This document shows, piece after piece, positions 6,424-28,871 of a stretch of DNA of 32,144 nucleotides. A program made the translations under genes and the position numbers. The stretch comes from Thermoplasmata archaeon (GTDB lineage Archaea > Thermoplasmatota > Thermoplasmata > UBA10834). Each line of letters begins with the position of its first letter. Positions within the stretch are counted from its first letter, which is position 1. The notes under the pieces were generated by a model. The model did no database searches. It was not told the DNA's origin and saw only the letters and a list, made by a program, of their open reading frames with translations. The stretch covers positions 1-32,144 of the forward strand of contig JBFEPA010000002.1 of assembly GCA_041550275.1 (NCBI GenBank), read 5' to 3'.

Positions 6424-6551
6424 GGAGTCCCTTTATTACACCCTCCCGTCAGGATTGCCAGAGCCGAGTGGATGCGCCAGACTGACACGGCGATCTCTGC
6501 GGGGTCACTCGGGCTGTGTCAATTCATTTGGCCCCAGCCAGGAGGGGAATC

Positions 6552-8645
6552 ATGAATTCAGATGGACCACTCGGAGAGAATGCCACGGGAGAATCGCGGA
6601 TGCCGCACACGAAGGATTCACCGGCACCAAGGATCGGGGTTTTTGTATGTCATTGCGGCAGCAATATCGCTGGCACAGTTGACCCTTCCAAGGTAAGGGA
6701 GGCTGCCGAGAAGGTCCCAGGCGTTGTTATTGCAAAGGAGAACAAGTACACCTGCTCCGATCTCGGCCAGGATGAGATAATCAAGGCGATCAGAGAAAAC
6801 GATGTTGACAGGGTCGTCGTCGCCGCATGTTCCCCAAGGATGCACGAACCGACTTTCAGGAGTTGCATCCAGGAGGCCGGTCTGAACCCATATATGCTGC
6901 AAATGGTAAACCTCAGAGAGCAGTGTTCGTGGGTTCACTCTCGAGAGAAAGACAAGGCGACAGCGAAAGCTGCCGACCTGGTGAGGATGGGTATCGCGAA
7001 GGCGACAAAGCTCGTACCTCTGGAAGCCAGAGAGGTGCCCGTCGAGCAATCCTCGATGGTGATTGGAGCGGGCGTGGCAGGCATCCAGGCTGCACTCGAT
7101 TTGGCCCAGATGGGGTTTAAAGTGTATGTCGTCGAGTCCGAGCCGAGCATCGGAGGGCGCATGGCACAGCTGGACAAGACTTTCCCCACCGGTGATTGTG
7201 CAATTTGCATACTGGCCCCGAAGATGGTCGAGATGGCGAGACATCCAAACATCACGCTCTTTTCGTATTCAGAAGTGGAGGAAGTCAAAGGCTTCATAGG
7301 CAGCTACACTGTGAAGATAAGGAGAAAGGCCCGCTATGTCGTAGAGGACAAGTGCGTCGGTTGCGGTGTCTGCGTGGATGCTTGTCCAGTCAAGGTGGAT
7401 AACGAATTCGACATGGGCTTCGGGAAGAGAAAGGCGATTTACGTGCCATTCCCGCAAGCGGTGCCGCTCAAGTACACCATAGACAGAGACAACTGCATCT
7501 TCTTCAAGACCGGCAAGTGCAAAGCCTGTGTCAAGGCATGCGCGAATGAAGCGATTGATCACGAGATGGAGGACGAGTTGGTCGAGCTCAAGGTTGGCAC
7601 GATAATCTGCGCCACAGGGTTTGACACCTACATCCCGATGAAGCGCGGGGTCTACAAGTACTGGGAATACCAGAACGTGATCACGGCCCTTGAGCTCGAG
7701 CGATTGTTGAATGCATCCGGACCGACCGGTGGACATCTCATCAGACCTTCCGATGGGAAGACGCCGAAGAGAGTCGCATTCATACAGTGCGTCGGCTCGA
7801 GGAACAAGAAGATCGGCACAAACTACTGCTCACGCGTCTGCTGCATGTACTCGATCAAGAACGCGCAGATAATCAAGGAGCACGAGCCTGACACCGAGAT
7901 CGCCGTCTACTACAACGATATCCGGGCGTTTGGCAAAGGCTTCGAGGAGCTGTACCATCGCGTCAGAGAGGAATACGGGGTCGAGTTCATAAGAGGACGG
8001 CCTGCGAAGCTGAGCCAGAACGCAGATACAAATTCCATCACGATAAGAGCGGAGGAGACCCTGCTCAACAAGATCACCGAGAGAGAGTTCGACCTGATAG
8101 TGCTAGCGACTGGACTCACACCTTCCGAGGGAAGCAAGAGGATCAGCAAGATACTCTCCTTATCTCTCAGTCCAGATGGCTTCTTCATGGAGGCTCATCC
8201 GAAGCTAAGACCAGTCGATACGGCCATCGACGGCATCTATCTTGCCGGATGCGCTCAGGGTCCCAAGGACATCCCTGATTCAGTAGCCCAGGCGAAGGCG
8301 GCAGCCGCATCCGCAGCCTCGATTATGGCAGGTAAGAAGGTGAAGATCGAACCCTTGACCGCGCTGGTCGATGAGAACCTCTGCATAGGATGCGGGCTGT
8401 GCGTCGAGATGTGCCCCTATAGCGCCCCCGAGATTGTCGACAGCGATGGAAAAACTAAGGCGAAGATCATAGAAGCGCTCTGCCATGGGTGTGGAACCTG
8501 CGTTGCCGCATGCCCGCAGAAAGCCATAACAGCGAACCAGTTCACTGACGAGCAGATAGCATCCGAAATCGTCTCGGCTCTTGAAGGCGACGGAGTGGAA
8601 ACTGATAAGGCGAAGAGGGCCGCAAAGAAGGCGGAGGAGGCGTGA
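6552..8645 (+). CDS. hdrA: HdrA, canonical heterodisulfide reductase flavoprotein subunit (unit 1)
   Basis: All canonical parts are in one ORF. N-domain [15 protein letters not shown]...CSPRMH...[11 protein letters not shown] module [15 protein letters not shown]...[19 protein letters not shown]. Inserted ferredoxin [12 protein letters not shown] / C..C..C. QCVGSR...CSRVCC motif. C-terminal ferredoxin [12 protein letters not shown] / [15 protein letters not shown] 6552 follows GGAGGGG; ATG 6600 is an alternative start. Confidence 0.92.
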
Positions 8646-8647
8646 TT

Positions 8648-9226
8648 ATGGGAGAAGCTGAGAAGACCTTCATCAGTGGCCTGCACGAGAAGCTGGTCGA
8701 AGACAAGGTCATCGATGAGTCACAACTTGAGCCGGAATTCGCCAAGGAGATTGTGAAGCATGGAGGCAAGGATGTCATGACTTGTCTCCAATGCGGCAAC
8801 TGCACAGGTGTCTGTCCGATCAGCCTCAAGATCGACTATAAGACCAGGAGCATAATCAAGTTCTGTCAATTCGGGCTGAAGAAATTCACCCTCGGAACCA
8901 GGTGGGTTTGTGCCACGTGCTACAGGTGCTATGAGCACTGTCCGGCAGACATCAACCCAGCTGAGGTGATGATAGCGCTCAGGCACATCGCAGTCAAGGA
9001 GGGAGTGATACCTCCGTTCATCAAAATGGCCGCGACGAACCTAGTGAAGTATGGCCAGAGCGTGAAGCCAGACCCCGAGATAGAGCGGGTCAGGAAGGAG
9101 CTCGAGCTGGGTGAAATACCGTCACGGAGTCAGGAATACTCGAAGGTCGTCCGGGAGATCAATCTGCTGATTCGTTCGACCGGTTATGATAAGCTCATAG
9201 GCATAGAAAGCGAGGTGAAGATTTGA
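8648..9226 (+). CDS. hdrC: HdrC, 2x[4Fe-4S] subunit
   Basis: CLQCGNCTGVCP and CATCYRCYEHCP motifs, ~190 aa. ATG 8648 lies 7 nt after GGAGGAGG; the listed GTG at 8642 is too close to the SD. Confidence 0.88.
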   Translation: MGEAEKTFISGLHEKLVEDKVIDESQLEPEFAKEIVKHGGKDVMTCLQCGNCTGVCPISLKIDYKTRSIIKFCQFGLKKFTLGTRWVCATCYRCYEHCPADINPAEVMIALRHIAVKEGVIPPFIKMAATNLVKYGQSVKPDPEIERVRKELELGEIPSRSQEYSKVVREINLLIRSTGYDKLIGIESEVKI

Positions 9227-10140
9227 CCCAATATACCTACTTCTTCGGCTGCATCATACCTAACAGATACCCGGGGATTGAGTACGCTGTGAGAAGCATC
9301 TGCGGCAAGGACGGGTTCGACATTGACGTAGAGGACACAAAGGAGTTCTCCTGTTGCCCGGTTCCTGGCATCTTCTACTCATCCGATAAGAACACCTGGT
9401 TGCTCCTGGCTGCTCGGAACCTTACTCTCGCCCAGAACGAAAGGAGGGAGATCCTCACCGTCTGCAACGGTTGTCTCACCTCCTTGCTGAAGGCGACGGA
9501 GTATCTCGCCGACCCGAAGAACCTCGGCAAGGTGAATCGTGTACTCTCCCAGATAGGCAGAAAGTATACGGGCATTCCGATGAAGACCGAGGGACGGCGA
9601 CGCATAATGGAGCCTGTAAAGGTGCGGCATTATGTCGACGTGATGGTCAACGATATCGGCCTCGAAAGCCTTGCGGAGAAGACGAAGAGACCGCTCAAGA
9701 ACATCAGAGCAGCCGTGCACTACGGCTGCCATTACCTGAGACCAACAGAGAACCAGACGATCGACGAGCCGAATGATCCAGTCAACATAGACAGGATTAT
9801 CGAGGCTTGCGGAGCCACGAGTGTTGAGTACGAGGACAAGCTGGACTGCTGCGGCGCCGGCGGCGGCGTGCGGTCTCATGTTGTGGAATTGGCCAACTCG
9901 CTCACAGAGGACAAGTGCAGGAACATTGCCGCGGCGGGCGCGGACTGCATAGTAACTGGGTGTCCGTTCTGCCTACTCCAGTTCGACAACGCGCAGAAGT
10001 CCTTCACAAAGGAGGGGATACCGGTCATGCACATATCACAGTTCCAGGCCTTGGCCATGGGGGTAGACCCGATCTCACTCGGTTTCGATACCCATCACGT
10101 CTCTGCGCACTCATTCCTCAGGAAGATCAGGGGGAGCTGA
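9223..10140 (+). CDS. hdrB: HdrB, catalytic subunit with two CCG domains
   Basis: N-terminus YTYFFGCIIPNRYPGIE. First CCG set (GC..., SCCPVPG, CNGC) and second set (GCHYLRP, DCCGAGGG, GCPFC). TTG start at 9223 overlaps the hdrC stop (TTGA), with a GAGGTGA SD upstream. Confidence 0.9.
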   Translation: MTQYTYFFGCIIPNRYPGIEYAVRSICGKDGFDIDVEDTKEFSCCPVPGIFYSSDKNTWLLLAARNLTLAQNERREILTVCNGCLTSLLKATEYLADPKNLGKVNRVLSQIGRKYTGIPMKTEGRRRIMEPVKVRHYVDVMVNDIGLESLAEKTKRPLKNIRAAVHYGCHYLRPTENQTIDEPNDPVNIDRIIEACGATSVEYEDKLDCCGAGGGVRSHVVELANSLTEDKCRNIAAAGADCIVTGCPFCLLQFDNAQKSFTKEGIPVMHISQFQALAMGVDPISLGFDTHHVSAHSFLRKIRGS

Positions 10141-10142
10141 CG

Positions 10143-10586
10143 ATGGAGATGGAGTCGGAATCCAAGGAGGAGCGCGCGAGATACAGCCCGAAGATAGTCG
10201 CCTTCTGCTGCAACTGGTGCTCCTATGCTGGTGCTGATCTTGCAGGTACCACGAGGCTGCAGTACCCCACGAACGTCAGAATCATCAGGGTGATGTGTTC
10301 TGGCAGGGTCGACCCGGCCTTTGTGCTGAAAGCATTCTCACTCGGAGCGGACGGCGTGATCATCGCGGGCTGCCATCCATCAGACTGCCATTACATCAAC
10401 GGGAACGAGAAGGCTGCGATGAGAGGCACGTTCCTCTCGGAGTTCCTCGAGGACGCTGGCCTTGAATCGCAACGTTTCAGAGTCGAATGGATTGCTGGCT
10501 CTGAAGGACAGAAGTTCGCGAACGTCGTCAAGCGAATGGTTTCGGAACTGGAGGCGCTCGGCCCAATTGCCGAGGAGAGTGCGTAG
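10143..10586 (+). CDS. mvhD: MvhD-type [2Fe-2S] electron-transfer subunit, copy 1
   Basis: [24 protein letters not shown] and AGCHPSDCHY motifs, ~147 aa. ATG lies 2 nt after the hdrB stop, with a GGGGGAG SD. Confidence 0.9.
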   Translation: MEMESESKEERARYSPKIVAFCCNWCSYAGADLAGTTRLQYPTNVRIIRVMCSGRVDPAFVLKAFSLGADGVIIAGCHPSDCHYINGNEKAAMRGTFLSEFLEDAGLESQRFRVEWIAGSEGQKFANVVKRMVSELEALGPIAEESA

Positions 10587-10588
10587 TG

Positions 10589-13500
10589 ATGGAAGAGATG
10601 AACGTCGTCGGCGCAGCCCTGGTTGTGGGCGGGGGCCCCGCGGGGATGCAGGCCGCATTGGACCTCGCAGAATCTGGATACAAGGTCTACCTTTTGGAGA
10701 CGACACCAAGCATCGGGGGAACAATGGCTCAATTGGACAAGACTTTCCCCACGAACGACTGCTCGATGTGCATACTGTCACCAAAGCTCGTCGCCACTGG
10801 AAGGCACGAAAACATCACCCTTCTCACGAACGCTGAGCTCAAGGAAGTGAAAGGAGAGGCAGGCAGGTTCCACGTGACTGTGACAAGACATCAACGTTTC
10901 ATAGTAGAGGAGAAGTGCACGGGCTGTGGTGTGTGCGCGGAGCATTGTCCCATCGAAGGCGCCAACTCATTCGACAGAGACCTAGCACCTGCCAAGGCGG
11001 TGTACGTCCCCTTCCCTCAGGCAGTGCCGTTGATATACACCATCGACAAGGGCCTCTGCATCGGCTGCGGCATATGCGAGAAGTTCTGCGAGGCGGGAGC
11101 GATTGAATACAGCATGGACTCGGAAGTCAACGAGACCATTGAGGTTGGGGCAATCATTCTCGCCCCTGGCTACGAGGTCTATGACGCATCAAGGAAGAGC
11201 GTGTATGGTCATGGCGCTTACCCTAATGTCGTCAGCAACATCGAGTTCGAGAGGATGCTCAGCGCTTCAGGCCCGACAGAGGGGCACGTGATCAGACCTT
11301 CGGACGGCGATATCCCGACGAAGATCGCGTTCATACAGTGTGTAGGGTCTCGGGATGCCCAGACCCTGACCACCTACTGCTCGTCGTATTGCTGCATGGC
11401 AGCCCTGAAACAGGCTGTAATCGCTCAGGAGCACGTGCCGGGACTCAAGACAACTATATTCTTCATGGATACACGCGCGTTCGGGAAGGAATTCGAAGAG
11501 TATCTCCACCGGGCGGAGAATGAGTATGGAGTCAGGGTACTCAGAAATAACCGGATATCGAAGGTGCAACAAAACCAGGAGACGGGCGATCTTGTGCTCA
11601 GCTTCATAGATGGCGCTGACATCAGCGAGGAACACTTCGACATGGTCGTCCTCTCGGCTGGCGCCAAACCGCCAGAAATGGCGCATCAGCTCGCCAAGAT
11701 GCTTGGCATCAAGACGAACAAGTTTGGCTTCTGTGAGACGGATGAACTCTCGCCGGTCGACAGCTCTTCGCCCGGCATCTACGTTTGCGGAGCGTTCTCC
11801 GGTCCTAAGGACATCCCCGATTCGGTGGCCCAGGCAAGCGGCGCAGCGGGCAAGGCCGCAGCGCTGCTCGCCAGTCAGAGGGGGAAGCTAGTCACCAAGA
11901 GAGAGTACCCCGAGGAGAAGAACCTGGAAGGCCAGGAGCCGCGCTTAGGCGTGTTCGTATGTCATTGCGGCATAAACATCGGAGCGGTCGTGAATGTTCC
12001 AGAAGTGATGGAGTACGCATCGAAACTGCCAGGTGTGGTCTACGCTGAGGCGAACCTGTATACTTGCTCCCAGGATACACAGAAGAAGATCAAAGAGATG
12101 ATCGAGAAGCACGGCCTCAATCGCGTGATCGTGGCGAGCTGCACACCACGCACACACGAACCGCTGTTCCAGAACACCGTGAGAGAGGCCGGACTCAACA
12201 AGTACCTGTTCGAGATGGCCAACATAAGGGACCAATGTTCGTGGGTCCATCGGTTGGAACCCGAGGCTGCGACGAAGAAGGCGAAGGACTTGGTGAGGAT
12301 GGCTGTGGCCAAAGCCAGCATACTGGAGCCACTCCCCCAGCCGAAGATACCAGTCACTCCAGTTGCGCTCGTCATAGGTGGGGGGCTAAGCGGAATGACT
12401 GCCGCTCTGGAGATTGCGAAGGCGGGATACGAAGTACACTTGGTCGAGAAGCAGAAGGACCTAGGTGGTCATCTGAGGACGCTCTACTCAACCCTAGCCG
12501 GTGTGGACCCGCAGGAAACTTTGGCAAACCTGGCGAAGGAAGTGCTCAATCACGACAAGATCAAGGTTCATCTAGAGGACACCGTCGATGAGATCAAGGG
12601 ATACATCGGCAACTTCGAGACCGCTCTGAAGAGCGGCGAGAAGATAGAGCACGGCGCAATCGTGGTCGCGACGGGAGCGATAGAGTACGAACCCAAGGAA
12701 TATCTGTACGGTAAGCATCCCAGGGTAATTAGACAGACTGCCCTCGGAGAGATGCTGGCCAGCGGCAAGTTCGATGCTGAATGCGTTGTGATTGTCCAGT
12801 GTGTCGGATCAAGGAACGACGAGCACCCAAACTGCTCGAGGATCTGCTGCTCGACTGCGATGGCCAACGCTCTGAAGATCAAGAGAGGGTACCCGGACAC
12901 AGACGTGTTCGTTCTGTTCAGGGACATCCGTACGTATGGCTTCGCCGAGGAGAACTACAACGAGGCTGCCCGTCTTGGCGTCAGGTTCCTGAGGTACGAT
13001 CCCGCGACGCCGCCGGAGATCAGTGTGGACGAGGGAAAATTGGAGGTTCACATTGACGAGCAGTTCATCGAAGAGAAGATTGTAATCAAGCCGGATTACC
13101 TAGTGCTCAATGCAGCGGTCCATCCCAATCCCGACAACAAGGGCCTCGCGCAGTTACTTAAGGTCCCCCAGAACAAAGAGGGTTTCTTCCTTGAGGCCCA
13201 CATGAAGCTGAGGCCGGTCGATTTCGCGACCGACGGCATCTTTGTTTGTGGTCTCGCACACTCGCCGAGACTCATTGATGAGAGCATCTCACAAGCCTTG
13301 GCAGCCGCTGCCAGGGTAAACACCGTGTTGTCCAAGCCATTCATAGAGGCTGAAGGCGTAGTTAGTGTCGTGGATGAGGACAAGTGCATCGGATGCGGAA
13401 GATGTGAGGATGTCTGCGAATACGGGGCTCCCGTCGTGGAGGAGATCTCACCTGGCATTTTCAAGTCACGTATTAAGGAAGCGCTCTGCAAGGGCTGTGG

Positions 13501-13624
13501 CTCATGCGCAGTAGAATGCTGTACGAGAGCCATACGACCTAAGCACTTCAGAAGCGACCAGATAATCACGATGATAGAGGCGGCACTCGCCGATGAAGAG
13601 CCGGCACAGGAGGCGAAGACATGA
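10589..13624 (+). CDS. Tandem (double-module) HdrA-like flavo-iron-sulfur protein, copy 1 (unit 2)
   Basis: The N-half has the [12 protein letters not shown] module plus the inserted ferredoxin. It lacks the CHCG N-domain and the C-terminal ferredoxin. The C-half (from ~11930) has the CHCG N-domain ([14 protein letters not shown]), a second Rossmann fold ([27 protein letters not shown]), QCVGSR...CSRICC and the C-terminal ferredoxin ([11 protein letters not shown] / [11 protein letters not shown]). Confidence 0.88.
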
Positions 13625-15216
13625 CGGATGAAGGCTTCGAGCCAAACATAGTCGCCTTCTGCTGCAACTGGTGCTCCTACGCCGGCGCAGATCTGGCAGG
13701 TGTCAGCAGGATGCAGTACCCTCCGAACGCGCGAATAATACGCGTCATGTGCTCGGGCAGGATAGAACCATACTTCGTGCTCAGGGCGCTCGAGCTCGGC
13801 GCTGACGGTGTGCTCGTCGCGGGATGCCACATAGGTGACTGTCACTACATCTCCGGGAATGTCGAGGCGGAGAAGAGGATGAAAGCCACGCAGGAGATGC
13901 TGGACGTGGTAGGCATTGGGAGAGACCGCATGAGACTGGAATGGATTTCCGCCTCCGAGGGACAGAAATTCGCCTCGACGATGAAGGAGTTCACAGACAG
14001 TATCCGCGAGCTAGGCCCCAACCCGATGCCAAGGCTTGCGAAGAAAGTGTACGACCCCGCCAAGCTGAAGTCGAGAGTCGATCACCTGATCGAGGACACT
14101 GGTGCCTTTGACTGCGTCGAGTGCGGCAAGTGCACGACGGTATGCCCGGTAGCCAAGTACGATTCGGAGTTCGCGCCCAGGACCATCGTGCTGAAGGCGA
14201 CGGAGGGACAGGCAGATTCAATCGTCGCCAGCAAAGATATCTGGACCTGCATCACATGTGAACAGTGCAACTCGATGTGCCCGTACAAGGTAGACTACTC
14301 TGGATTCATAAGAGGACTGAGAACCGAAGCTGCGGCAAAGGATGCAACGCCCGCCTGCAGTCAGGGCGGCCTCATGCAGGGGATGATGCGCATACAGGCG
14401 CACGGCGACTTCAAGCAGAACAGGCTGGGATGGCTGACCCCGGAGTTGAAGATCGCGGACAAGGGCGACGTATTCTACTTCACTGGATGCGTAGCGTATT
14501 TCGATGCCGTCTTCAGCGACAGAGAGCTCAACCTCGCTGGCATACCACAGGCGGTAGTCAAGATAATGAACAGCGCTGGCATTACCCCAGTCGTGAGCAA
14601 CGACGAGGTGTGTTGCGGACACGATCTTAACTGGACTGGCGACGAGGAGGGGCTGCAGCGGCTCATGAAGAAGAATGTGGAGGTCATCAAAGCCTCCGGA
14701 GCGAAGACCGTCGTGTTCTCGTGCCCTGAGTGTATGAGGACCTTCGATATGGACTATCAGGACTTCTTGGGTGACTTCGACTTCGAGATGACCCACGTGT
14801 CCGAGTTCGTTGACAATCTAATCCAAGATGGGAAACTGAAGTTCAAGAAGGGCAGTGACAAGCTAACCTTCCAGGATTCGTGCAGACTCGGCAGGCACCT
14901 TGGTATCTACGACCCGCCGAGGAACGCCATGAAGGGCGTCGGAGCGAATGTCGTGGAGATGGAGAACACGAGAGACAAGGCGATATGCTGCGGTGTGAGT
15001 TCTTGGGCCACATGCGACGATATTGCGCGCAAGCTGCAGGTGGAGAGGTTGAAAGAGGCGAAGAAGACTGGAGCTGACTGCCTTGTCACGGGATGCTACA
15101 AGTGTCTGATCCATCTGGCTTGTGCCCGAGACAACAAGCTCGAAGGAGTGCCTAAGGATCAGGTAGACATCAAGATCAAGGACCTCAGTGTAGCGATAGC
15201 GGAGGCGTTGGAATGA
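13621..15216 (+). CDS. MvhD::HdrC-like::HdrB-like (HdrD-type, two CCG domains) triple fusion
   Basis: Residues 1-~135 are MvhD ([32 protein letters not shown]). They are followed by [12 protein letters not shown] / [12 protein letters not shown] (HdrC-like). Then come two CCG sets (FTGC, VCCGHD, SCPEC; DSCRLG, ICCGVSS, TGCYKC). ATGA overlap with the upstream gene. Confidence 0.85.
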
Positions 15217-15278: not shown

Positions 15279-15374
15279 GAAGAGACTCAATACCGCAAAG
15301 GCAAAAGGGGTTCGTTGATTGCAGTAGGCACAATGCAAATGCAACTGAATATGAGATTTGAAGGGGGCTTTTGA

Positions 15375-23700: not shown

Positions 23701-23828
23701 GCGGCGCGTGCGTTGGCTCATGCCCATCGGGCGCGCTCACGCAGAAAGGATTCAGGGATGAGCAGATCGTCGCCATGATCGATGCAGCGCTTGAGGATGA
23801 TGCGGAGAAGCAGGAGGTGAGGCAATGA
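20790..23828 (+). CDS. Tandem (double-module) HdrA-like flavo-iron-sulfur protein, copy 2 (unit 4)
   Basis: Same layout as 10589-13624. N-half VVGGGISGLQSSLDL...[19 protein letters not shown] plus inserted ferredoxin. C-half [49 protein letters not shown]...CSRVCC, C-terminal CDGCGICVPTC / CKGCGACVGSCP. ATG overlaps the upstream TGA (TGATG), with a GGAGGTGA SD. Confidence 0.88.
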   Translation: MAASDKVGAVMVVGGGISGLQSSLDLADSGFKVYLVEKQPSIGGTMAQLDKTFPTNDCAMCIMAPKLVSTGRHHNIELVTNADILAVEGKAGDFTVTVKQRALRVDPTKCTGCGSCAQTCPIETSDEYNESTKIRKAIYVRYPQAVPLVYSIDKDKCIGCGICAEECKAKAVVYDQEESTSEIKVGSIILSPGFDEFNARLKGEYGYGVYKNVVNSIEFERMLSATGPYFGTVMRPSDGDIPEKIAFIQCVGSRDEQVGNEYCSGVCCMYSIKEAIIAKEHGGNIKPKIFFMDMRAFGKEFDEYYNRAQNEYGIEFVRSRVASVFEDPETKNLIVKYVEKGEPKEEEFGLVILAVGLRPPADAEALSKVIGFELNSDGFCKTTTLEPVSSSKAGVFVSGAFSSPKDIPMTVAEASGAAAKAATEIASARDSLVTKKEYPAELDITDQEPRIGVFVCHCGINIGGVVKVPSVTEYARTLPNVAYAEENLYTCSQDTQEKIKEMIKEHDLNRVVVASCTPRTHEPLFQNTIKEAGLNSYLFEMANIRDQCSWIHMHEAESATKKAKDLVRMAVAKARLLEPLENLTIDVNQQALVIGGGATGMAAALELAKQGVKVHLVEKEKELGGNMRKLHYLPSGEDPTEHAEAMAREVTSNGNITVHTGTGIKMIEGYVGNFKTALESGEEIEHGAVILAVGGQEYKPKGEYLYGENPNVLTLLEFKEKLKKGEAKGDSYVFIQCVGSREEGHPNCSRVCCTGTMTAAIKIKEKNPDAEVYVLYRDIRTYGFREAYYKDAAEKGVTFIRFEDDVKPKVEDKGGKLQVTVTDEDTDKEVVLTSDYLVLASGTRPYPESEALAPMLKVPMTKEGFFLEAHMKLRPVDFATEGVYLAGLSHGPKFLDESIGQGLAAVARAMTILSKKTLEAEGIVASVDETLCDGCGICVPTCEYKALEIIADKKDETKKTLDLNIGLCKGCGACVGSCPSGALTQKGFRDEQIVAMIDAALEDDAEKQEVRQ

Positions 23829-24283
23829 GCAGCGCAACGCCCAACGCCGGTGGTCAGCCCAAGGCGGAGGAAGAGGATTTCGAGCCGAAGATAATCGTGT
23901 TCTGCTGCAACTGGTGTTCATACGCTGGCGCTGACCTCGCAGGGGTCAGCAGGCTGCAGATGCCCCCGTACTTCAGGGTGATAAGGGTCATGTGCTCTGC
24001 TAGAGTCGACCCTGAGTTCGTCCTGAGGGCGATTCAGAAGGGGGCAGATGGAGTCCTCGTCGCAGGATGTCATCCAGCGGACTGCCACTACATCGGAGGT
24101 AACTACAGGACGCGGAGGAGAGTTGCGCTCCTTCAGATGCTGCTCCAGCAGTTCGGCTATGACCCTGGCAGGCTTAAACTGGAATGGATATCCGCTGGTG
24201 AGGGAGAGAAATTCCAGAAGACCATTGTCGAGTTCACGAACACGATCAACGAGCTAGGGCCGTCTCCGATGGGTGGTGACTGA
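23825..24283 (+). CDS. mvhD: MvhD-type [2Fe-2S] subunit, copy 4 (adjacent to the hydrogenase genes)
   Basis: [38 protein letters not shown] overlap with the upstream gene. Confidence 0.9.
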   Translation: MSSATPNAGGQPKAEEEDFEPKIIVFCCNWCSYAGADLAGVSRLQMPPYFRVIRVMCSARVDPEFVLRAIQKGADGVLVAGCHPADCHYIGGNYRTRRRVALLQMLLQQFGYDPGRLKLEWISAGEGEKFQKTIVEFTNTINELGPSPMGGD

Positions 24284-24285
24284 AC

Positions 24286-24669
24286 ATGACACCGAGGGAC
24301 GGTAGGATCAGGGCGGCGCTGAGGACGCTCGAGGGTGAGCGCATAAGGTGGCTCCTTGGTAAGAAAGAGATGCTTACGACGGGTGAGAACGTGTTCGGCG
24401 AGACAATCACTGACGCGAGATACAGCTTCATACTCCAGAAGGCGGCCGCTGTGGAACTGGAGCGGAACTTGCTGCTTCTTCAGATGGAGCAGCAGTCCAA
24501 GACCGTGCATGAACTGCACGACGCCACAGGCATACCGAAGCCAGAGATCGTCCATCACATCATCGCCCTCAAGAGATGGAGGATGGTCGAGCAGGTCGGC
24601 ACGACGGGGCAGTCGCCGCAGTACAAGGCTGTTCCCAAAAGCATATCCTCGGATGAGGAGGTGAGCTGA
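24286..24669 (+). CDS. Small Cys-free winged-helix-like protein of unknown function (free homologue of the MvhD copy 3 extension)
   Basis: 127-aa ORF tightly coupled on both sides (2 nt after the mvhD stop, 1 nt before the mvhG ATG), with a GGTGGTGA SD. wHTH-like pattern in the C-terminal half. No match to a named family that I can recognise. Confidence 0.7.
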   Translation: MTPRDGRIRAALRTLEGERIRWLLGKKEMLTTGENVFGETITDARYSFILQKAAAVELERNLLLLQMEQQSKTVHELHDATGIPKPEIVHHIIALKRWRMVEQVGTTGQSPQYKAVPKSISSDEEVS

Positions 24670-24670
24670 G

Positions 24671-25687
24671 ATGGCAGACAAGATTAAGATTGCGCAGTAC
24701 TGGGGCGCTGGATGCGGAGGATGCGACGTCGCCCTGCTGGACATAGACGCGAAGATACTGGATGTACACGCCATTGCCGAGGTGGTCTTCTGGCCAATCG
24801 GGTTCGACGGCAAGCTCTCCGAGATAGAGGCGATGCCTGACAAGTCGATCACGGTGTCGTTCTACAACGGCGCGATAAGGAACAGCGAGAACGAGCATGT
24901 CGCGAAGGTGCTTCGAGAGAAGTCTGCGGTCATGATAGCATTCGGATCTTGCGCATGTTTCGGCGGAACGCCAGGCTTGGCGAACGTGACGAACAGGGAG
25001 GAGATCTTCCAGACTGTGTACAAGGACACCGTTTCCACTGACAACCCTGACTTCGTGACGCCACAAACGCATTGCACGGTTCCAGAGGGCGAGGTTGACC
25101 TCCCTGTGTTCTATGAAAGCGTCAAGACGCTCGACGAGGTCGTGGATGTTGACTACTTCATGCCTGGATGCCCACCAACGGTGAACCTCATCGCTTTGGC
25201 GGTCGACGCGGTGGCAAAGCATGTTACGGAAGGCGCGGACCTGCCTCCGAAGGGCACCATCATCGCCTCGGACAAGACGCTTTGCGACGAATGTGACCGC
25301 GAACGCGTCGAGAAGGATAGGCGAATCGAGAGGATCTACCAGTCGTACGAGATCAAGGCGGATCCGAAGAAGTGCCTTCTCGACCAGGGAATCATCTGCA
25401 TAGGCCCCGCGACGAGAGCTGGCTGCGGATCCATGTGTCCGAAAGCCAACATGCCCTGCAGGGGATGCATGGGCCCGACGAAGGCCGTCATGGACCACGG
25501 TGGAAGCATGCTGAGCGCACTGTCGTCGCTCCTGAATATCACAGATTCGGAGTCAAAGTTAAGTGAGGAGCAGATAATGGAACTAATGATGCAGGTGAAG
25601 GATCCGCTCGGAACCTTCTATGCCTTCACGCTCCCGAAGTCGCTGCTCAAGAGGACTGTGACCGAGAAGCGCAAGAAGAAGGGGTGA
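24671..25687 (+). CDS. mvhG: MvhG, small subunit of F420-non-reducing (Mvh-type) [NiFe] hydrogenase
   Basis: N-terminal WGAGCGGCDVALLD proximal-cluster motif, GSCACFGG, MPGCPP, and C-terminal CIGPATRAGCGSMCP...PCRGCMGP cluster motifs. Confidence 0.92.
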   Translation: MADKIKIAQYWGAGCGGCDVALLDIDAKILDVHAIAEVVFWPIGFDGKLSEIEAMPDKSITVSFYNGAIRNSENEHVAKVLREKSAVMIAFGSCACFGGTPGLANVTNREEIFQTVYKDTVSTDNPDFVTPQTHCTVPEGEVDLPVFYESVKTLDEVVDVDYFMPGCPPTVNLIALAVDAVAKHVTEGADLPPKGTIIASDKTLCDECDRERVEKDRRIERIYQSYEIKADPKKCLLDQGIICIGPATRAGCGSMCPKANMPCRGCMGPTKAVMDHGGSMLSALSSLLNITDSESKLSEEQIMELMMQVKDPLGTFYAFTLPKSLLKRTVTEKRKKKG

Positions 25688-27207
25688 TGCACATGCCAGG
25701 ACCAATAATCAACGACACAACGACGAAGACTACGGAGAAGAAGCTGACGATTGACCCAATCACGAGGCTCGAGGGACACGGCAAGATAGAGATATTCCTG
25801 AACGACCAGGGCAACGTGGCGAATGCATATCTCCAGGTCCCCGAACTCAGAGGATTCGAACGCTTCTGCATCGGCAGGCATGTGCAAGAACTACCCGTGC
25901 TGACCAACAGGTTGTGTGGCGTTTGTCCTGCGGCGCATCACATCGCGTCGACGAAGGCTCTCGACGCGGTGTTCAACGCAGAACCCACTGAGACTGCGAA
26001 GAAGCTCAGGGAGCTGTTCTACATGGGACAGTATACCCACAGCCACATAGCACACTTCTACGCCCTAGCTGCGCCTGACTTCGTGCTCGGACCGTCCGCA
26101 CCGGCCAACAAAAGGAACGTCCTAGGTGTAGTCGACGCCGTGGGTGTAGAGATCGGCGGAGAGGTCATCAAGCACAGGTCGTACGGTCAGAAGGTTCAGG
26201 AGATCGTCGGCGGAAGGGCGACTCATCCGTGCTTCGGTCTTCCAGGCGGAGTGTCCAAGCAGATAAGCGAGGAAGAGCGCGCCCAGATGGAAGAGATGGC
26301 GAAGTCCTGCGTCGAGTTCGGGAAGTTCACCGTGAAGCTCTTTCACGATGTCGTGCTGGCCAATCAGGATTACATGAACCTTGTCCTGAACCAGGACGCA
26401 TACTATCTCGAATCGTACTACATGGGCATGGTTGACAAGAACAACAAGTCGAACTTCTACGACGGTGACATCCGCGTGGTGGACCAGACTGGCAAGGAGG
26501 TAGTGAAGTTCAAGCCGAGCGAGTATCTCGATGTCATCGCAGAACACGTCGAGCCTTGGACTTACATGAAGATGCCGTTCCTGAAGCAGGTGGGATGGAA
26601 AGGCTTCTCCGTCGGCCCGTCAAGTGGAATCTACAGAGTCGGACCGCTCGGCAGAATCAACGTTTGCGAGGGTTACACGACACCGCTTGCTCAAGCCGAA
26701 TACGCGGCACTGGCGAAGACGGTAAAAGACCTGGGAGTGACAGGACCAGTCCATCACACACTCGCGTACCACTGGGCGAGGGTGGTCGAGCTGCAGTACG
26801 CCACAGAGAGGATGCTCGAGCTGGCGAGCGACAAGAGCATTACGAGCGACGATACCCGTGGCGAAGTCAACGAACCCACAGAAGGCGTCGGCATATGCGA
26901 GGCACCGAGGGGGACTCTGATACACCACTATGCCTCAGATAAGGAAGGGCTGTGCACGATGATTAACATGATCGTGGCTACGACGAACAACTACGCTGCC
27001 ATCAATACCAGTATCACCCAGGCGGCGAAGGCGCTGATCAGGAATTGGGAGATCTCCCCCGGCCTGCTGAACAAGGTCGAGATGGCGTTCCGATGCTACG
27101 ACCCGTGCAACTCATGCGGGACTCATGCGCTCAACGGTTCGCCCGCGCTGGAGATAGCGGTGCGGCGCGCAGACGGGTCCACACTCGAGAGGCAGAGAAA
27201 CTTCTGA
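25687..27207 (+). CDS. mvhA: MvhA, large subunit of Mvh-type [NiFe] hydrogenase
   Basis: TRLEGHGKIEI, N-terminal ligand motif RLCGVCPAAHH, and C-terminal DPCNSCGTH followed by a 26-residue tail (a protease-cleaved extension is expected). Start is ambiguous among GTG 25684, ATG 25687 and ATG 25693. Confidence 0.93.
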   Translation: MHMPGPIINDTTTKTTEKKLTIDPITRLEGHGKIEIFLNDQGNVANAYLQVPELRGFERFCIGRHVQELPVLTNRLCGVCPAAHHIASTKALDAVFNAEPTETAKKLRELFYMGQYTHSHIAHFYALAAPDFVLGPSAPANKRNVLGVVDAVGVEIGGEVIKHRSYGQKVQEIVGGRATHPCFGLPGGVSKQISEEERAQMEEMAKSCVEFGKFTVKLFHDVVLANQDYMNLVLNQDAYYLESYYMGMVDKNNKSNFYDGDIRVVDQTGKEVVKFKPSEYLDVIAEHVEPWTYMKMPFLKQVGWKGFSVGPSSGIYRVGPLGRINVCEGYTTPLAQAEYAALAKTVKDLGVTGPVHHTLAYHWARVVELQYATERMLELASDKSITSDDTRGEVNEPTEGVGICEAPRGTLIHHYASDKEGLCTMINMIVATTNNYAAINTSITQAAKALIRNWEISPGLLNKVEMAFRCYDPCNSCGTHALNGSPALEIAVRRADGSTLERQRNF

Positions 27208-27787: not shown

Positions 27788-28834
27788 TCAGCATATTCTT
27801 GGAACCGGGTCGCCAACGGGGGGCTCGATGATGCGCTTTCCTCCCGTATGAGTCTCGAGCATAACCCCGTCGAAATCTGCTGATGCAGCACCGACAATGC
27901 ACGCGCCTCGTCCCTCTGGCGTGGCCTTGACTGCCCTGAGAACCTCCTCAGCAGCCTCGGGGACGACCGCAATGACGACCTTGCCCTCGTTGCCTATCTC
28001 CAGCGGGTCGATCCCCAGCATCTCGCAGGCGGAGAGCACGCCTTCATCCAAGGGAAGGTCCTCCTCCCTGACAGATATCCCCACCGATGATTTATCAGCC
28101 CATTCGTTGAGCAGATTGGCAACGCCTCCTCTCGTGGGATCCTTCATGGCAACGACACCTCCCACTCTCAAGGCTGCCTCGATCAGCTTGTTGAGAGGGG
28201 CAGCGTCGGTCTTCACGGTCGTCTCGAACCCGTATCCTTCACGAAAAGACAGGAGGGCGACGCCATGGTTGCCTATCGGTCCTGACACGATCAGCATATC
28301 CCCTTCGAAGATGGCAGAGTCGTTCGGCCAGTTCCAAGCGTACTCCCGCGACGCACGCACGCGTTCGAGATTCCCGTCGAGATATTCGGAGCGCTTGCCG
28401 ATGCCGCTGGTATTGATGAAGAGGCGGTCCGCGGCCCCCTTCTCTACCACTTTGGTATCGCCGGTAACTATCCTCACATCTGCTCTTCGGGCCGTGTCAC
28501 TCATGCTTCGCATGATTGTGTGGAGTTCGTCGGACGAGAACCCTTCCTCGATAATCATCCCACATGACAGAGCCAACGGTCTGGCGCCCATCACAGATAC
28601 ATCGTTGACCGTGCCCGCGACGGAAAGGAGGCCTATGTCCCCTCCCGGGAAGAAGAGTGGTTTGACGGTGTAAGAATCCGTCGTGAACACGATCCCTTCG
28701 ATCACGGCAGCGTCATCCAAGGCTGAGAGGGGTATCTCACCGCTATCGTGCTCCAGCTCTTTGAGTATGAACTCCTTGATGAACTCCAACATCCCCTCTC
28801 CGCCCGCTCCTTGGGCCATTGTGATCTTCGACAT
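27788..28834 (-). CDS. hypE: HypE (thiocyanate-forming maturation ATPase)
   Basis: N-terminal ITMAQGAGGEG, AIR-synthase-like body and the diagnostic C-terminal PRIC. ATG 28834 is preferred over the listed TTG at 28849. Confidence 0.92.
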   Translation of the reverse strand: MSKITMAQGAGGEGMLEFIKEFILKELEHDSGEIPLSALDDAAVIEGIVFTTDSYTVKPLFFPGGDIGLLSVAGTVNDVSVMGARPLALSCGMIIEEGFSSDELHTIMRSMSDTARRADVRIVTGDTKVVEKGAADRLFINTSGIGKRSEYLDGNLERVRASREYAWNWPNDSAIFEGDMLIVSGPIGNHGVALLSFREGYGFETTVKTDAAPLNKLIEAALRVGGVVAMKDPTRGGVANLLNEWADKSSVGISVREEDLPLDEGVLSACEMLGIDPLEIGNEGKVVIAVVPEAAEEVLRAVKATPEGRGACIVGAASADFDGVMLETHTGGKRIIEPPVGDPVPRIC

Positions 28835-28871
28835 CGTATTGTCTCGCAAGTGCTCGAAAATGCTAGGTGGC

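Follow-up and report, generated by a model that had tools for sequence, protein, structure and literature searches.

The stretch of DNA analysed here, positions 1 to 32,144 of contig JBFEPA010000002.1 of a Thermoplasmata archaeon (assembly GCA_041550275.1; referred to at its full length as the window), contains a gene in which an MvhD-type adaptor, an HdrC-like ferredoxin domain and two CCG (non-cubane cluster) domains are encoded as a single polypeptide, P0001. The protein is a genuine MvhD, HdrC-like and double CCG fusion with a full complement of cysteines. We regard it, with some confidence, as two subunits of one HdrA-type flavin-based electron-bifurcating unit held in one chain, that is, as a tether and not a new circuit.

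Domain composition of the fusion protein

The single 531-aa open reading frame (ORF), the full MvhD core, the two ferredoxin motifs and the two CCG cysteine sets announced in a preliminary description of this DNA were all located exactly (Table 1). The MvhD part covers the FlpD profile completely (Pfam PF02662, profile positions 1-123 of 123) with 188.3 bits against a cut-off of 22.3, and shares about 61% identity with the MvhD chains in the solved Mvh-Hdr, Elp-Hdr and Fdh-Hdr complexes (3e-53 to 5odc_D and 4e-54 to 9sw2_D), all six cysteines of 5odc_D being aligned and retained. The HdrC-like part matches the HdrC chains 8rvv_C and 5odc_C at 1e-10 to 1e-11 and carries the ferredoxin motifs C165xxC168xxC171xxxC175P and C210xxC213xxC216xxxC220P. 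The CCG domain was found twice by Pfam, with the cysteines of the two sets spaced C290-x40-C331C332-x35-C368xxC371 and C421-x34-C456C457-x34-C492xxC495. With its two CxxCxxCxxxCP motifs and, after them, two CCG motifs with ten cysteines in all, the single chain shows the motif pattern of HdrD. P0001 falls far below the curated cut-offs of the NCBIfam equivalogs TfrB, LdhH, GlpC, DsrK, TmcB, HmcF, HdrB and HdrC, the best equivalog scores being those for LdhH (125, with 800 needed) and TfrB (123.5, with 385 needed).

Conservation of the cluster ligands was assessed in an alignment of 18 fused homologues with identities down to 31%. The MvhD cysteines C15, C44, C69 and C74 and all eight ferredoxin cysteines are invariant, as are eight of the ten CCG cysteines, while the two others (C371 and C492) are at least 90% conserved. 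The careful alignment of ligands called for in the preliminary description hence revealed no missing cysteines.

The gene stands directly behind a tandem hdrA of 1012 aa: its ATG overlaps the TGA of the latter (ATGA at 13621-13624) and is preceded at 8 nt by a GGAGG motif. From this overlap the two genes are predicted to be translationally coupled.

Integrity of the reading frame

A sequencing or assembly error masking a stop codon or a frameshift between separate mvhD and hdrD genes could in principle produce the same reading frame. Such an artefact gains some plausibility from the close relatives in which the genes are separate, with stop and start falling within the linker region, and from about 39 nt of identity with mvhD copy 1, which create an assembly-graph branch at 13648-13688. 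This repeat falls, however, within the MvhD domain, away from the junction, and single contigs from three runs of one study, whose sample is possibly the source of the window, cover positions 13650/13656-14139 (MvhD domain, linker and first ferredoxin motif) with 0 mismatches and 0 indels. Moreover, fused ORFs are found in five assemblies that share the synteny, among the homologues listed in more than 100, and in roughly 20 of the clusters formed at 50% identity. An artefact is thus extremely improbable, and a hidden stop between the MvhD and HdrC-like parts, for which the preliminary description had advised a check, was rejected on the error-free junction contigs of the three runs.

Contigs of several runs break or branch at 13648-13688, their loose ends reading into mvhD copy 1. 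From position 14112 onward, contigs ending at 15104, at 15304 or at the end of the stretch compared, depending on the run, differ from the window at a single site, 14178, where the contigs of all four runs have T instead of C. The site is the third position of the codon for Pro186, and the change is synonymous.

Distribution of fused and separate forms

A word-indexed homologue search listed 120 matches, so that there are at least 120, most of them full length and a few truncated. Among the matches listed, more than 100 are full-length fused homologues, 56-91% identical to P0001 and all of FlpD, Fer4 and CCG composition, and all those named come from metagenome-assembled genomes (MAGs) of Thermoplasmata, Methanomassiliicoccales or 'Methanobacteriota'. 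An exhaustive search of 50%-identity representatives recovered roughly 20 further fused clusters, with identities down to 33%, whose named members belong to Candidatus Alkanophagales, Desulfobacteraceae or Deltaproteobacteria, and Planctomycetota. Five other Thermoplasmata assemblies (loci L001, L002, L003, L011 and L053) likewise encode the fusion as one ORF following the same tandem hdrA. Among the genomes chosen to represent species, two Thermoplasmata groups have fused genes: in group A, which includes the window, the fusion follows a tandem HdrA, and in group B a 593-aa HdrA-like gene. At the group-B locus L005 the neighbouring genes are unrelated, an AOR gene being found about 5 kb off, beyond genes of the opposite strand.

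The MvhD::HdrD-like architecture is common in sequence databases, and not unusual, under generic annotations such as 'hydrogenase iron-sulfur subunit', 'Fe-S oxidoreductase/F420-reducing hydrogenase delta subunit' or 'HdrD'. Among the papers searched, none names or characterises an MvhD-HdrD fusion; those on Hdr, on anaerobic methanotrophic archaea (ANME) and on Desulfobacterium yielded nothing beyond HdrA::MvhD fusions and HdrD-like genes placed in hdrA clusters. The fusion is an uncharacterised variant of the HdrA-type bifurcating complexes.

Separate, adjacent mvhD and hdrD-like genes occur at the syntenic loci L015, L017 and L013 and also at L021 and L032 (Thermoplasmata and Methanomassiliicoccales), as well as in bacterial MAGs of Cytophagia, WOR-3, Chloroflexota and Glassbacteria. 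In every relative of the fused or adjacent form with upstream DNA to examine, an hdrA lies directly upstream, be it tandem, of about 590 aa or of 670-680 aa (two Chloroflexota loci). In ANME-2 and Methanoperedens the order is hdrD-like, hdrC, hdrB, tandem hdrA, mvhD, with the two parts at opposite ends of the cluster.

Both states can be found in one MAG, SpSt-1159, which has unfused mvhD and hdrD at the syntenic locus L015 plus a fused paralogue (L004) after a single HdrA-like gene. The unfused MvhD of the Cytophagia MAG (L012) has an in-frame TGA at the position of Cys69 (10190-10192), which probably encodes selenocysteine, as reported for BamF and for a Desulfobacterium MvhD. Related domains are also joined in other ways: P0204 (L081, 2279-5719; 1146 aa) combines a GltD/NfnB-like NAD(P)H module with ferredoxin, FlpD and CCG domains; P0133 and P0178 (864 and 947 aa) combine a GltD-like module with a dicluster ferredoxin and two CCG domains; and P0144 (618 aa) consists of ferredoxin, FlpD, dicluster and CCG domains. 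None of these four chains contains an HdrA domain.

Phylogeny of the two parts

In the tree of the HdrD part, the Thermoplasmata form one clade (100*) in which fused and unfused members are mixed, and the bacterial unfused pairs fall outside it. In the full-length tree, the fused clade of the window (99*) is sister, with a support of 92, to the unfused L015/L032 pair; five state changes are needed in this tree, and its starred branches force at least two of them. The MvhD tree agrees in keeping the fused groups A and B separate, and gathers the MvhDs that have an HdrD-like gene, fused or adjacent, on one side of a branch with weak support (79). A single fusion origin is allowed by the HdrD-part tree alone (support 77) and was rejected, the MvhD and full-length trees needing two or more changes. 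Since the trees force at least two changes and unfused neighbours exist, an old and conserved pair of genes accompanying hdrA has been joined, or split, repeatedly; and the unfused orthologues show the partnership of MvhD and the HdrD-like protein to be older than the fusion.

Proposed position of the fusion in the electron path

It had been suggested in the preliminary description that tethering MvhD to the CCG module implies a different wiring. This argument finds no support, since the two occur as adjacent separate genes in syntenic relatives and in several bacterial phyla, and fusion or fission took place at least twice. Because the same parts are adjacent separate genes in relatives, the fusion can be taken to join partners of an already existing complex.

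As a tether within one bifurcating unit, the fusion would operate as follows. The N-terminal MvhD would serve as a [2Fe-2S] adaptor that hands electrons to the flavin adenine dinucleotide (FAD) that carries out bifurcation in the upstream tandem HdrA, the electrons coming from an input module, for which the island's own MvhAG hydrogenase is the most plausible candidate, with H2 as the presumed donor. The HdrD-like module would be the high-potential exit, receiving electrons from the FAD via the cluster of the HdrA thioredoxin-reductase domain. In complex with the fusion, the tandem HdrA would then form a bifurcating core equivalent to BamE/F/D, with MvhD as the last station before the FAD.

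Solved structures lend support to this arrangement. In the complexes of methanogens the cluster of MvhD lies 'near to the bifurcating FAD', as the last station (PMC12350162, PMC13518236), and the clusters of HdrC or BamD are one cluster away from the same FAD (bioRxiv 10.64898/2026.04.10.717634). In the cryo-electron microscopy structure of BamE/F/D, the MvhD-like BamF and the HdrD-like BamD serve the same bifurcating FAD (bioRxiv 10.64898/2026.04.10.717634). With the MvhD cluster beside the FAD and HdrC or BamD one cluster off, the two parts can therefore be spatial neighbours, and the proximity of the MvhD cluster to the bifurcating FAD makes a short linker between them plausible. The earlier statement that MvhD sits on the opposite side of HdrA from HdrBC consequently holds in the topological sense only, given that the MvhD cluster is next to the FAD and the HdrC/BamD clusters are one cluster away from it. 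The fused MvhD domain is also the most canonical of the four MvhD copies in the window (78 of 128 residues identical to 5odc_D, against 72-76), which would fit retained canonical contacts.

The structure of P0001 predicted by AlphaFold2 from a 70-sequence alignment has a mean pLDDT (predicted local distance difference test) of 85.4 and a pTM (predicted template modelling score) of 0.88, with pLDDT values of 83-87 in the linker (residues 133-150). The MvhD domain superposes on solved MvhD chains with TM-scores of 0.85-0.90 (normalised to the MvhD chains) and the CCG part on HdrB with about 0.65-0.69 (normalised to the HdrB chain), as calculated by Foldseek. The best structural match of the whole HdrD-like part is EtfD of M. 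smegmatis (9OJN; Foldseek E 5e-15, phmmer 1e-28), of which only the cytoplasmic part (residues 396-721) aligns with P0001. The HdrD-like part, at 396 of the 531 residues, could alone yield a pTM of at most about 0.75, and the MvhD domain is therefore confidently placed relative to the rest.

Several points weigh against a mere tether. The pTM, together with a linker pLDDT above 80, suggests a rigid two-module body, while in solved complexes MvhD sits on a mobile arm (PMC12350162, PMC13518236); a rigid tether may therefore alter gating or bring the [2Fe-2S] cluster within tunnelling distance of the cubanes. The fusion unit has no input module of its own adjacent to it, and in the 1146-aa P0204, a chain without an HdrA domain, the MvhD domain could act as an in-line relay. 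Lastly, the RNA runs searched gave no transcript match to the stretch.

An alternative is a rigid docking of MvhD onto the HdrC-like domain, with direct electron exchange between the [2Fe-2S] cluster of MvhD and the cubanes. The didomain would then be either an in-line relay from a flavoprotein to the CCG site, as proposed in the preliminary description, or a path without bifurcation by which electrons go from MvhAG to the CCG site and leave out the HdrA flavin. Besides the confident placement of MvhD in the model, this wiring is favoured by the MvhD tree, in which a branch with the weak support given above parts the MvhDs associated with HdrD-like proteins from the others, and by P0204 and P0144, in which FlpD and CCG domains are joined to other input modules. 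A path from a mid-potential input cluster to the high-potential arm would, however, short-circuit bifurcation, and direct wiring sits poorly with the hdrA found upstream wherever upstream DNA could be examined and with the canonical character of the fused MvhD domain. Also, the AlphaFold2 confidence may reflect only co-variation within the fused sequences. Direct wiring is considered unlikely.

The CCG site and its possible acceptor

In HdrB, the sulfonate of coenzyme M (CoM) is bound by the backbone of G46 and G198 and coenzyme B (CoB) by R14, R201 and R240, and F233 lines the tunnel (PMC13261682). The HdrB numbering was reconstructed from an alignment with 5odc_B and then checked, and the sites were compared by hhalign profile-profile alignment to HdrB (97.8% probability) and by a cysteine-anchored motif comparison, with concordant results. 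None of the six contact residues is kept in P0001, the replacements being R14 by N304, G46 by L336, G198 by S461, R201 by T464, F233 by K494 and R240 by C501. In addition, H154, a proposed proton relay, is replaced by R422, and G80 by E370.

The same locus holds a canonical HdrBC, the hdrBC genes placed at 8648-10140 in the preliminary description being real (HdrC, TIGR03290 at 123 bits; HdrB, 6.6e-83 to 5odc_B). This HdrB (9223-10140) keeps five of the six contacts (R14, G46, G198, R201 and F233); the sixth, R240, is Asn, and this position is also not Arg in the compared HdrB homologues of Thermoplasmata, ANME-2 and bacterial loci. The early proposal that the locus encodes two potentially different CCG sites is supported by this comparison.

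Throughout the fused family six residues do not vary: E370, R422, C465, K494, H498 and C501. In the motif comparison the unfused, ANME and Asgard relatives share them too, with the exception of a Ser at R422 in the second copy of L021, whereas HdrB and EtfD do not have them. CCGHD and C(P/A)EC, the latter with E370, are family hallmarks of the first CCG set, and C465 and C501 coincide with or adjoin the sites where HdrB has its CoB-binding R201 and R240. At the G80 position MsEtfD has His (CPHC in 9OJN), and in the ETF:menaquinone oxidoreductase (EMO; ETF, electron-transferring flavoprotein) of Syntrophus, SaEMO, the corresponding H534 occupies or blocks the CoM site (bioRxiv 10.64898/2026.08.18.745454). 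With the CoM/CoB contacts replaced and all ten cysteines kept, the CCG site of P0001 is thus neither HdrB-like nor like the known electron-transfer-only types, and its acceptor is probably not CoM-S-S-CoB bound in the manner of HdrB.

The closest named relative of the window (L011, 83% identical) comes from a MAG of order UBA10834, members of which are reported as non-methanogens without mcr (bioRxiv 10.1101/2020.03.09.984617); going by this literature about its relatives, the host would be non-methanogenic. Substrate hints were sought in the neighbourhood, and only hyp, hdr, mvh, MobA-like and histidine-kinase-type (PAS + HATPase_c) genes were found in the window.

Given these features, the CCG module could be an electron-transfer exit to a protein or quinone-type acceptor and not a disulfide reductase, a possibility that fits with either wiring. 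Precedents are BamD, which delivers electrons to ETF, and EtfD/EMO, which acts between ETF and menaquinone (bioRxiv 10.64898/2026.04.10.717634, 10.64898/2026.08.18.745454). The structural match to EtfD (9OJN), the loss of all four side-chain CoB contacts of HdrB, the invariant Glu at the position where EMO has His, the replacement of the proton-relay H154 by R422 and the reported non-methanogenic relatives all point in this direction. On the other hand, all ten CCG cysteines are kept in P0001 while the distal cluster is degenerate or missing in BamD, SaEMO, MsEMO and DsrK, there is no ETF, DsrC, TusA or lipoate-carrier gene in the window, and P0001 has no membrane domain. An electron-transfer exit is accordingly possible, if somewhat doubtful.

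A bolder combination can also be conceived, in which a rigid didomain couples the [2Fe-2S] cluster to the cubanes, so that entry and exit of the flavin lie in one chain with a gating unlike that of the swinging MvhD arm, and in which the CCG site, with the invariant residues of the family where HdrB has its CoM/CoB contacts, at the same time forms a catalytic subtype of its own whose acceptor is non-methanogenic and which works perhaps via a C465/C501 redox pair. Taken as a whole, this combination seems quite unlikely.

Comparison with characterised systems

The closest solved analogue of a tethered bifurcating unit is BamE/BamF/BamD of the class II benzoyl-CoA reductase of Geobacter metallireducens (bioRxiv 10.64898/2026.04.10.717634). 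Both systems have a fused-dimer HdrA of the same domain order with an MvhD-type adaptor and an HdrC+HdrB fusion as partners, and in BamDEF one FAD bifurcates and the HdrC+HdrB fusion is the high-potential exit (bioRxiv 10.64898/2026.04.10.717634). Here, in contrast, adaptor and exit arm are one polypeptide, the ten CCG cysteines are kept where the distal cluster of BamD is degenerate, and the MvhD domain is short, without the extra domains of BamF and without selenocysteine. The window also lacks BamBC (AOR-type), BamGHI and ETF genes.

The MvhAGD-HdrABC complexes of methanogens (H2:heterodisulfide/ferredoxin oxidoreductase; 5ODC, 8RVU, 7BKB and 9SW2) resemble the present system in an MvhD of about 61% identity with the same cysteines, in the HdrC-like dicluster and HdrB-like fold, and in having the HdrA partner gene and mvhGA in the same island. 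They differ in that MvhD, HdrC and HdrB are here one chain and HdrA is a tandem pseudo-dimer, in the replacement of the HdrB site residues with the extra invariant C465, H498 and C501, and in the reported non-methanogenic relatives of the host lineage.

With HdrD of the Methanosarcina HdrDE, P0001 shares the single-chain HdrC+HdrB organisation with its two CxxCxxCxxxCP and two CCG motifs. Many homologues of P0001 bear the JGI label 'heterodisulfide reductase subunit D'. Unlike HdrD, P0001 has an added N-terminal MvhD and an HdrA as genomic partner, and no HdrE-type cytochrome b gene is present among the annotated ORFs of the 32-kb window.

EtfD/EMO, besides being the best solved match, also carries a side chain where HdrB has G80 (His there, Glu in P0001). 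EMO, however, is membrane-bound, contains haem, has a degenerate distal cluster and works with ETF and quinone, whereas P0001 is soluble, has both cysteine sets in full and carries MvhD. There is no transmembrane haem b domain in P0001, its 531 residues being filled by FlpD, Fer4 and CCG domains. Finally, in HdrA2 of the Methanosarcina acetivorans HdrA2B2C2 (PMC5296606), an HdrA::MvhD protein, MvhD is likewise covalently joined to an Hdr subunit with no adjoining hydrogenase, but is attached there to the C-terminus of HdrA and here to the N-terminus of an HdrCB-type module.

Genomic island around the fusion

The window is one hyp/hdr/mvh island. It starts with hypB, hypF, hypC, hypA and hypD, followed by hdrA, hdrC, hdrB and mvhD copy 1 and then by the tandem hdrA and the mvhD::hdrD-like gene. 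Next comes an hdrA that carries a GltD insertion, together with a second-half hdrA, and after them mvhD copy 3, which is extended at its C-terminus. The island ends with a tandem hdrA, mvhD copy 4, a small ORF, mvhG, mvhA and a maturation protease, with hypE on the opposite strand. There are therefore four HdrA units, each with one MvhD after it. MvhAG is the only hydrogenase of the island and a possible electron source for the fusion unit; no AOR-type (BamBC) or NuoEFG/HydBC-type genes were found in the window.

Comparison with 8rvu_a by phmmer assigns residues 6-425 of the tandem HdrA that precedes the fusion to the FAD/thioredoxin-reductase domain with an inserted ferredoxin, residues 443-603 to the HdrA N-terminal domain and residues 854-1006 to the end of the second thioredoxin-reductase fold and the C-terminal ferredoxin. 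The same pseudo-dimer arrangement has been described for HdrA3/4 of ANME (PMC9012536) and for BamE. Copy 1 of mvhD is found at the equivalent place in L001, L002, L011, L015 and L017. The HypE-like gene (AIRS/AIRS_C; 27788-28849, minus strand) overlaps an ORF on the plus strand (27897-28673) that has no Pfam match.

Table 1. Location of the fusion gene, its parts and associated features in the window
Feature	Position	Strand	Evidence or remark
mvhD::hdrD-like fusion gene, P0001, 531 aa	13621..15216	+	Open frame; Pfam FlpD + Fer4 dicluster + 2xCCG
GGAGG ribosome-binding-like motif, 5' of fusion ATG	13609..13613	+	Sequence reading
MvhD/FlpD domain, residues 10-132, predicted [2Fe-2S] site (C15, C44, C69, C74)	13648..14016	+	Pfam FlpD; Foldseek
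Linker, residues about 133-150	14017..14070	+	Varies in sequence and length among fused homologues (alignment columns about 147-175)
HdrC-like 2x[4Fe-4S] ferredoxin domain, residues 164-225	14110..14295	+	Fer4_17, Fer4_8 and related models
First CCG motif (C290, C331, C332, C368, C371)	14488..14733	+	
E370 (in C[P/A]EC)	14728-14730	+	
Second CCG motif (C421, C456, C457, C492, C495)	14881..15123	+	
R422 (in CRLGRH)	14884-14886	+	
C465	15013-15015	+	
K494	15100-15102	+	
H498	15112-15114	+	
C501	15121-15123	+	
Canonical hdrA-hdrC-hdrB, second CCG site of the locus	6516..10140	+	
mvhD copy 1, 147 aa, between hdrB and tandem hdrA	10143..10586	+	FlpD 183 bits
Tandem (pseudo-dimeric) HdrA, presumed flavoprotein partner	10586..13624	+	phmmer to 8rvu_a; Pfam; NCBIfam
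mvhD copy 4, small winged-helix-like ORF, mvhG, mvhA	23825..27207	+	Pfam FlpD, Oxidored_q6, NiFeSe_Hases

Significance

By itself the fusion reveals no new kind of system. Its interest lies in the fact that flavin-based electron bifurcation of the HdrA type is widespread beyond methanogens, and most such complexes have no known high-potential acceptor or subunit arrangement. A single chain is a convenient object for expression and structural work, and its pocket signature helps to tell apart the many proteins that carry an 'HdrD' annotation. The repeated, independent fusion of MvhD with an HdrCB-type module is Rosetta-stone evidence for the partnership of the two on the same HdrA, and hints that the entry adaptor and the exit arm may be close neighbours.

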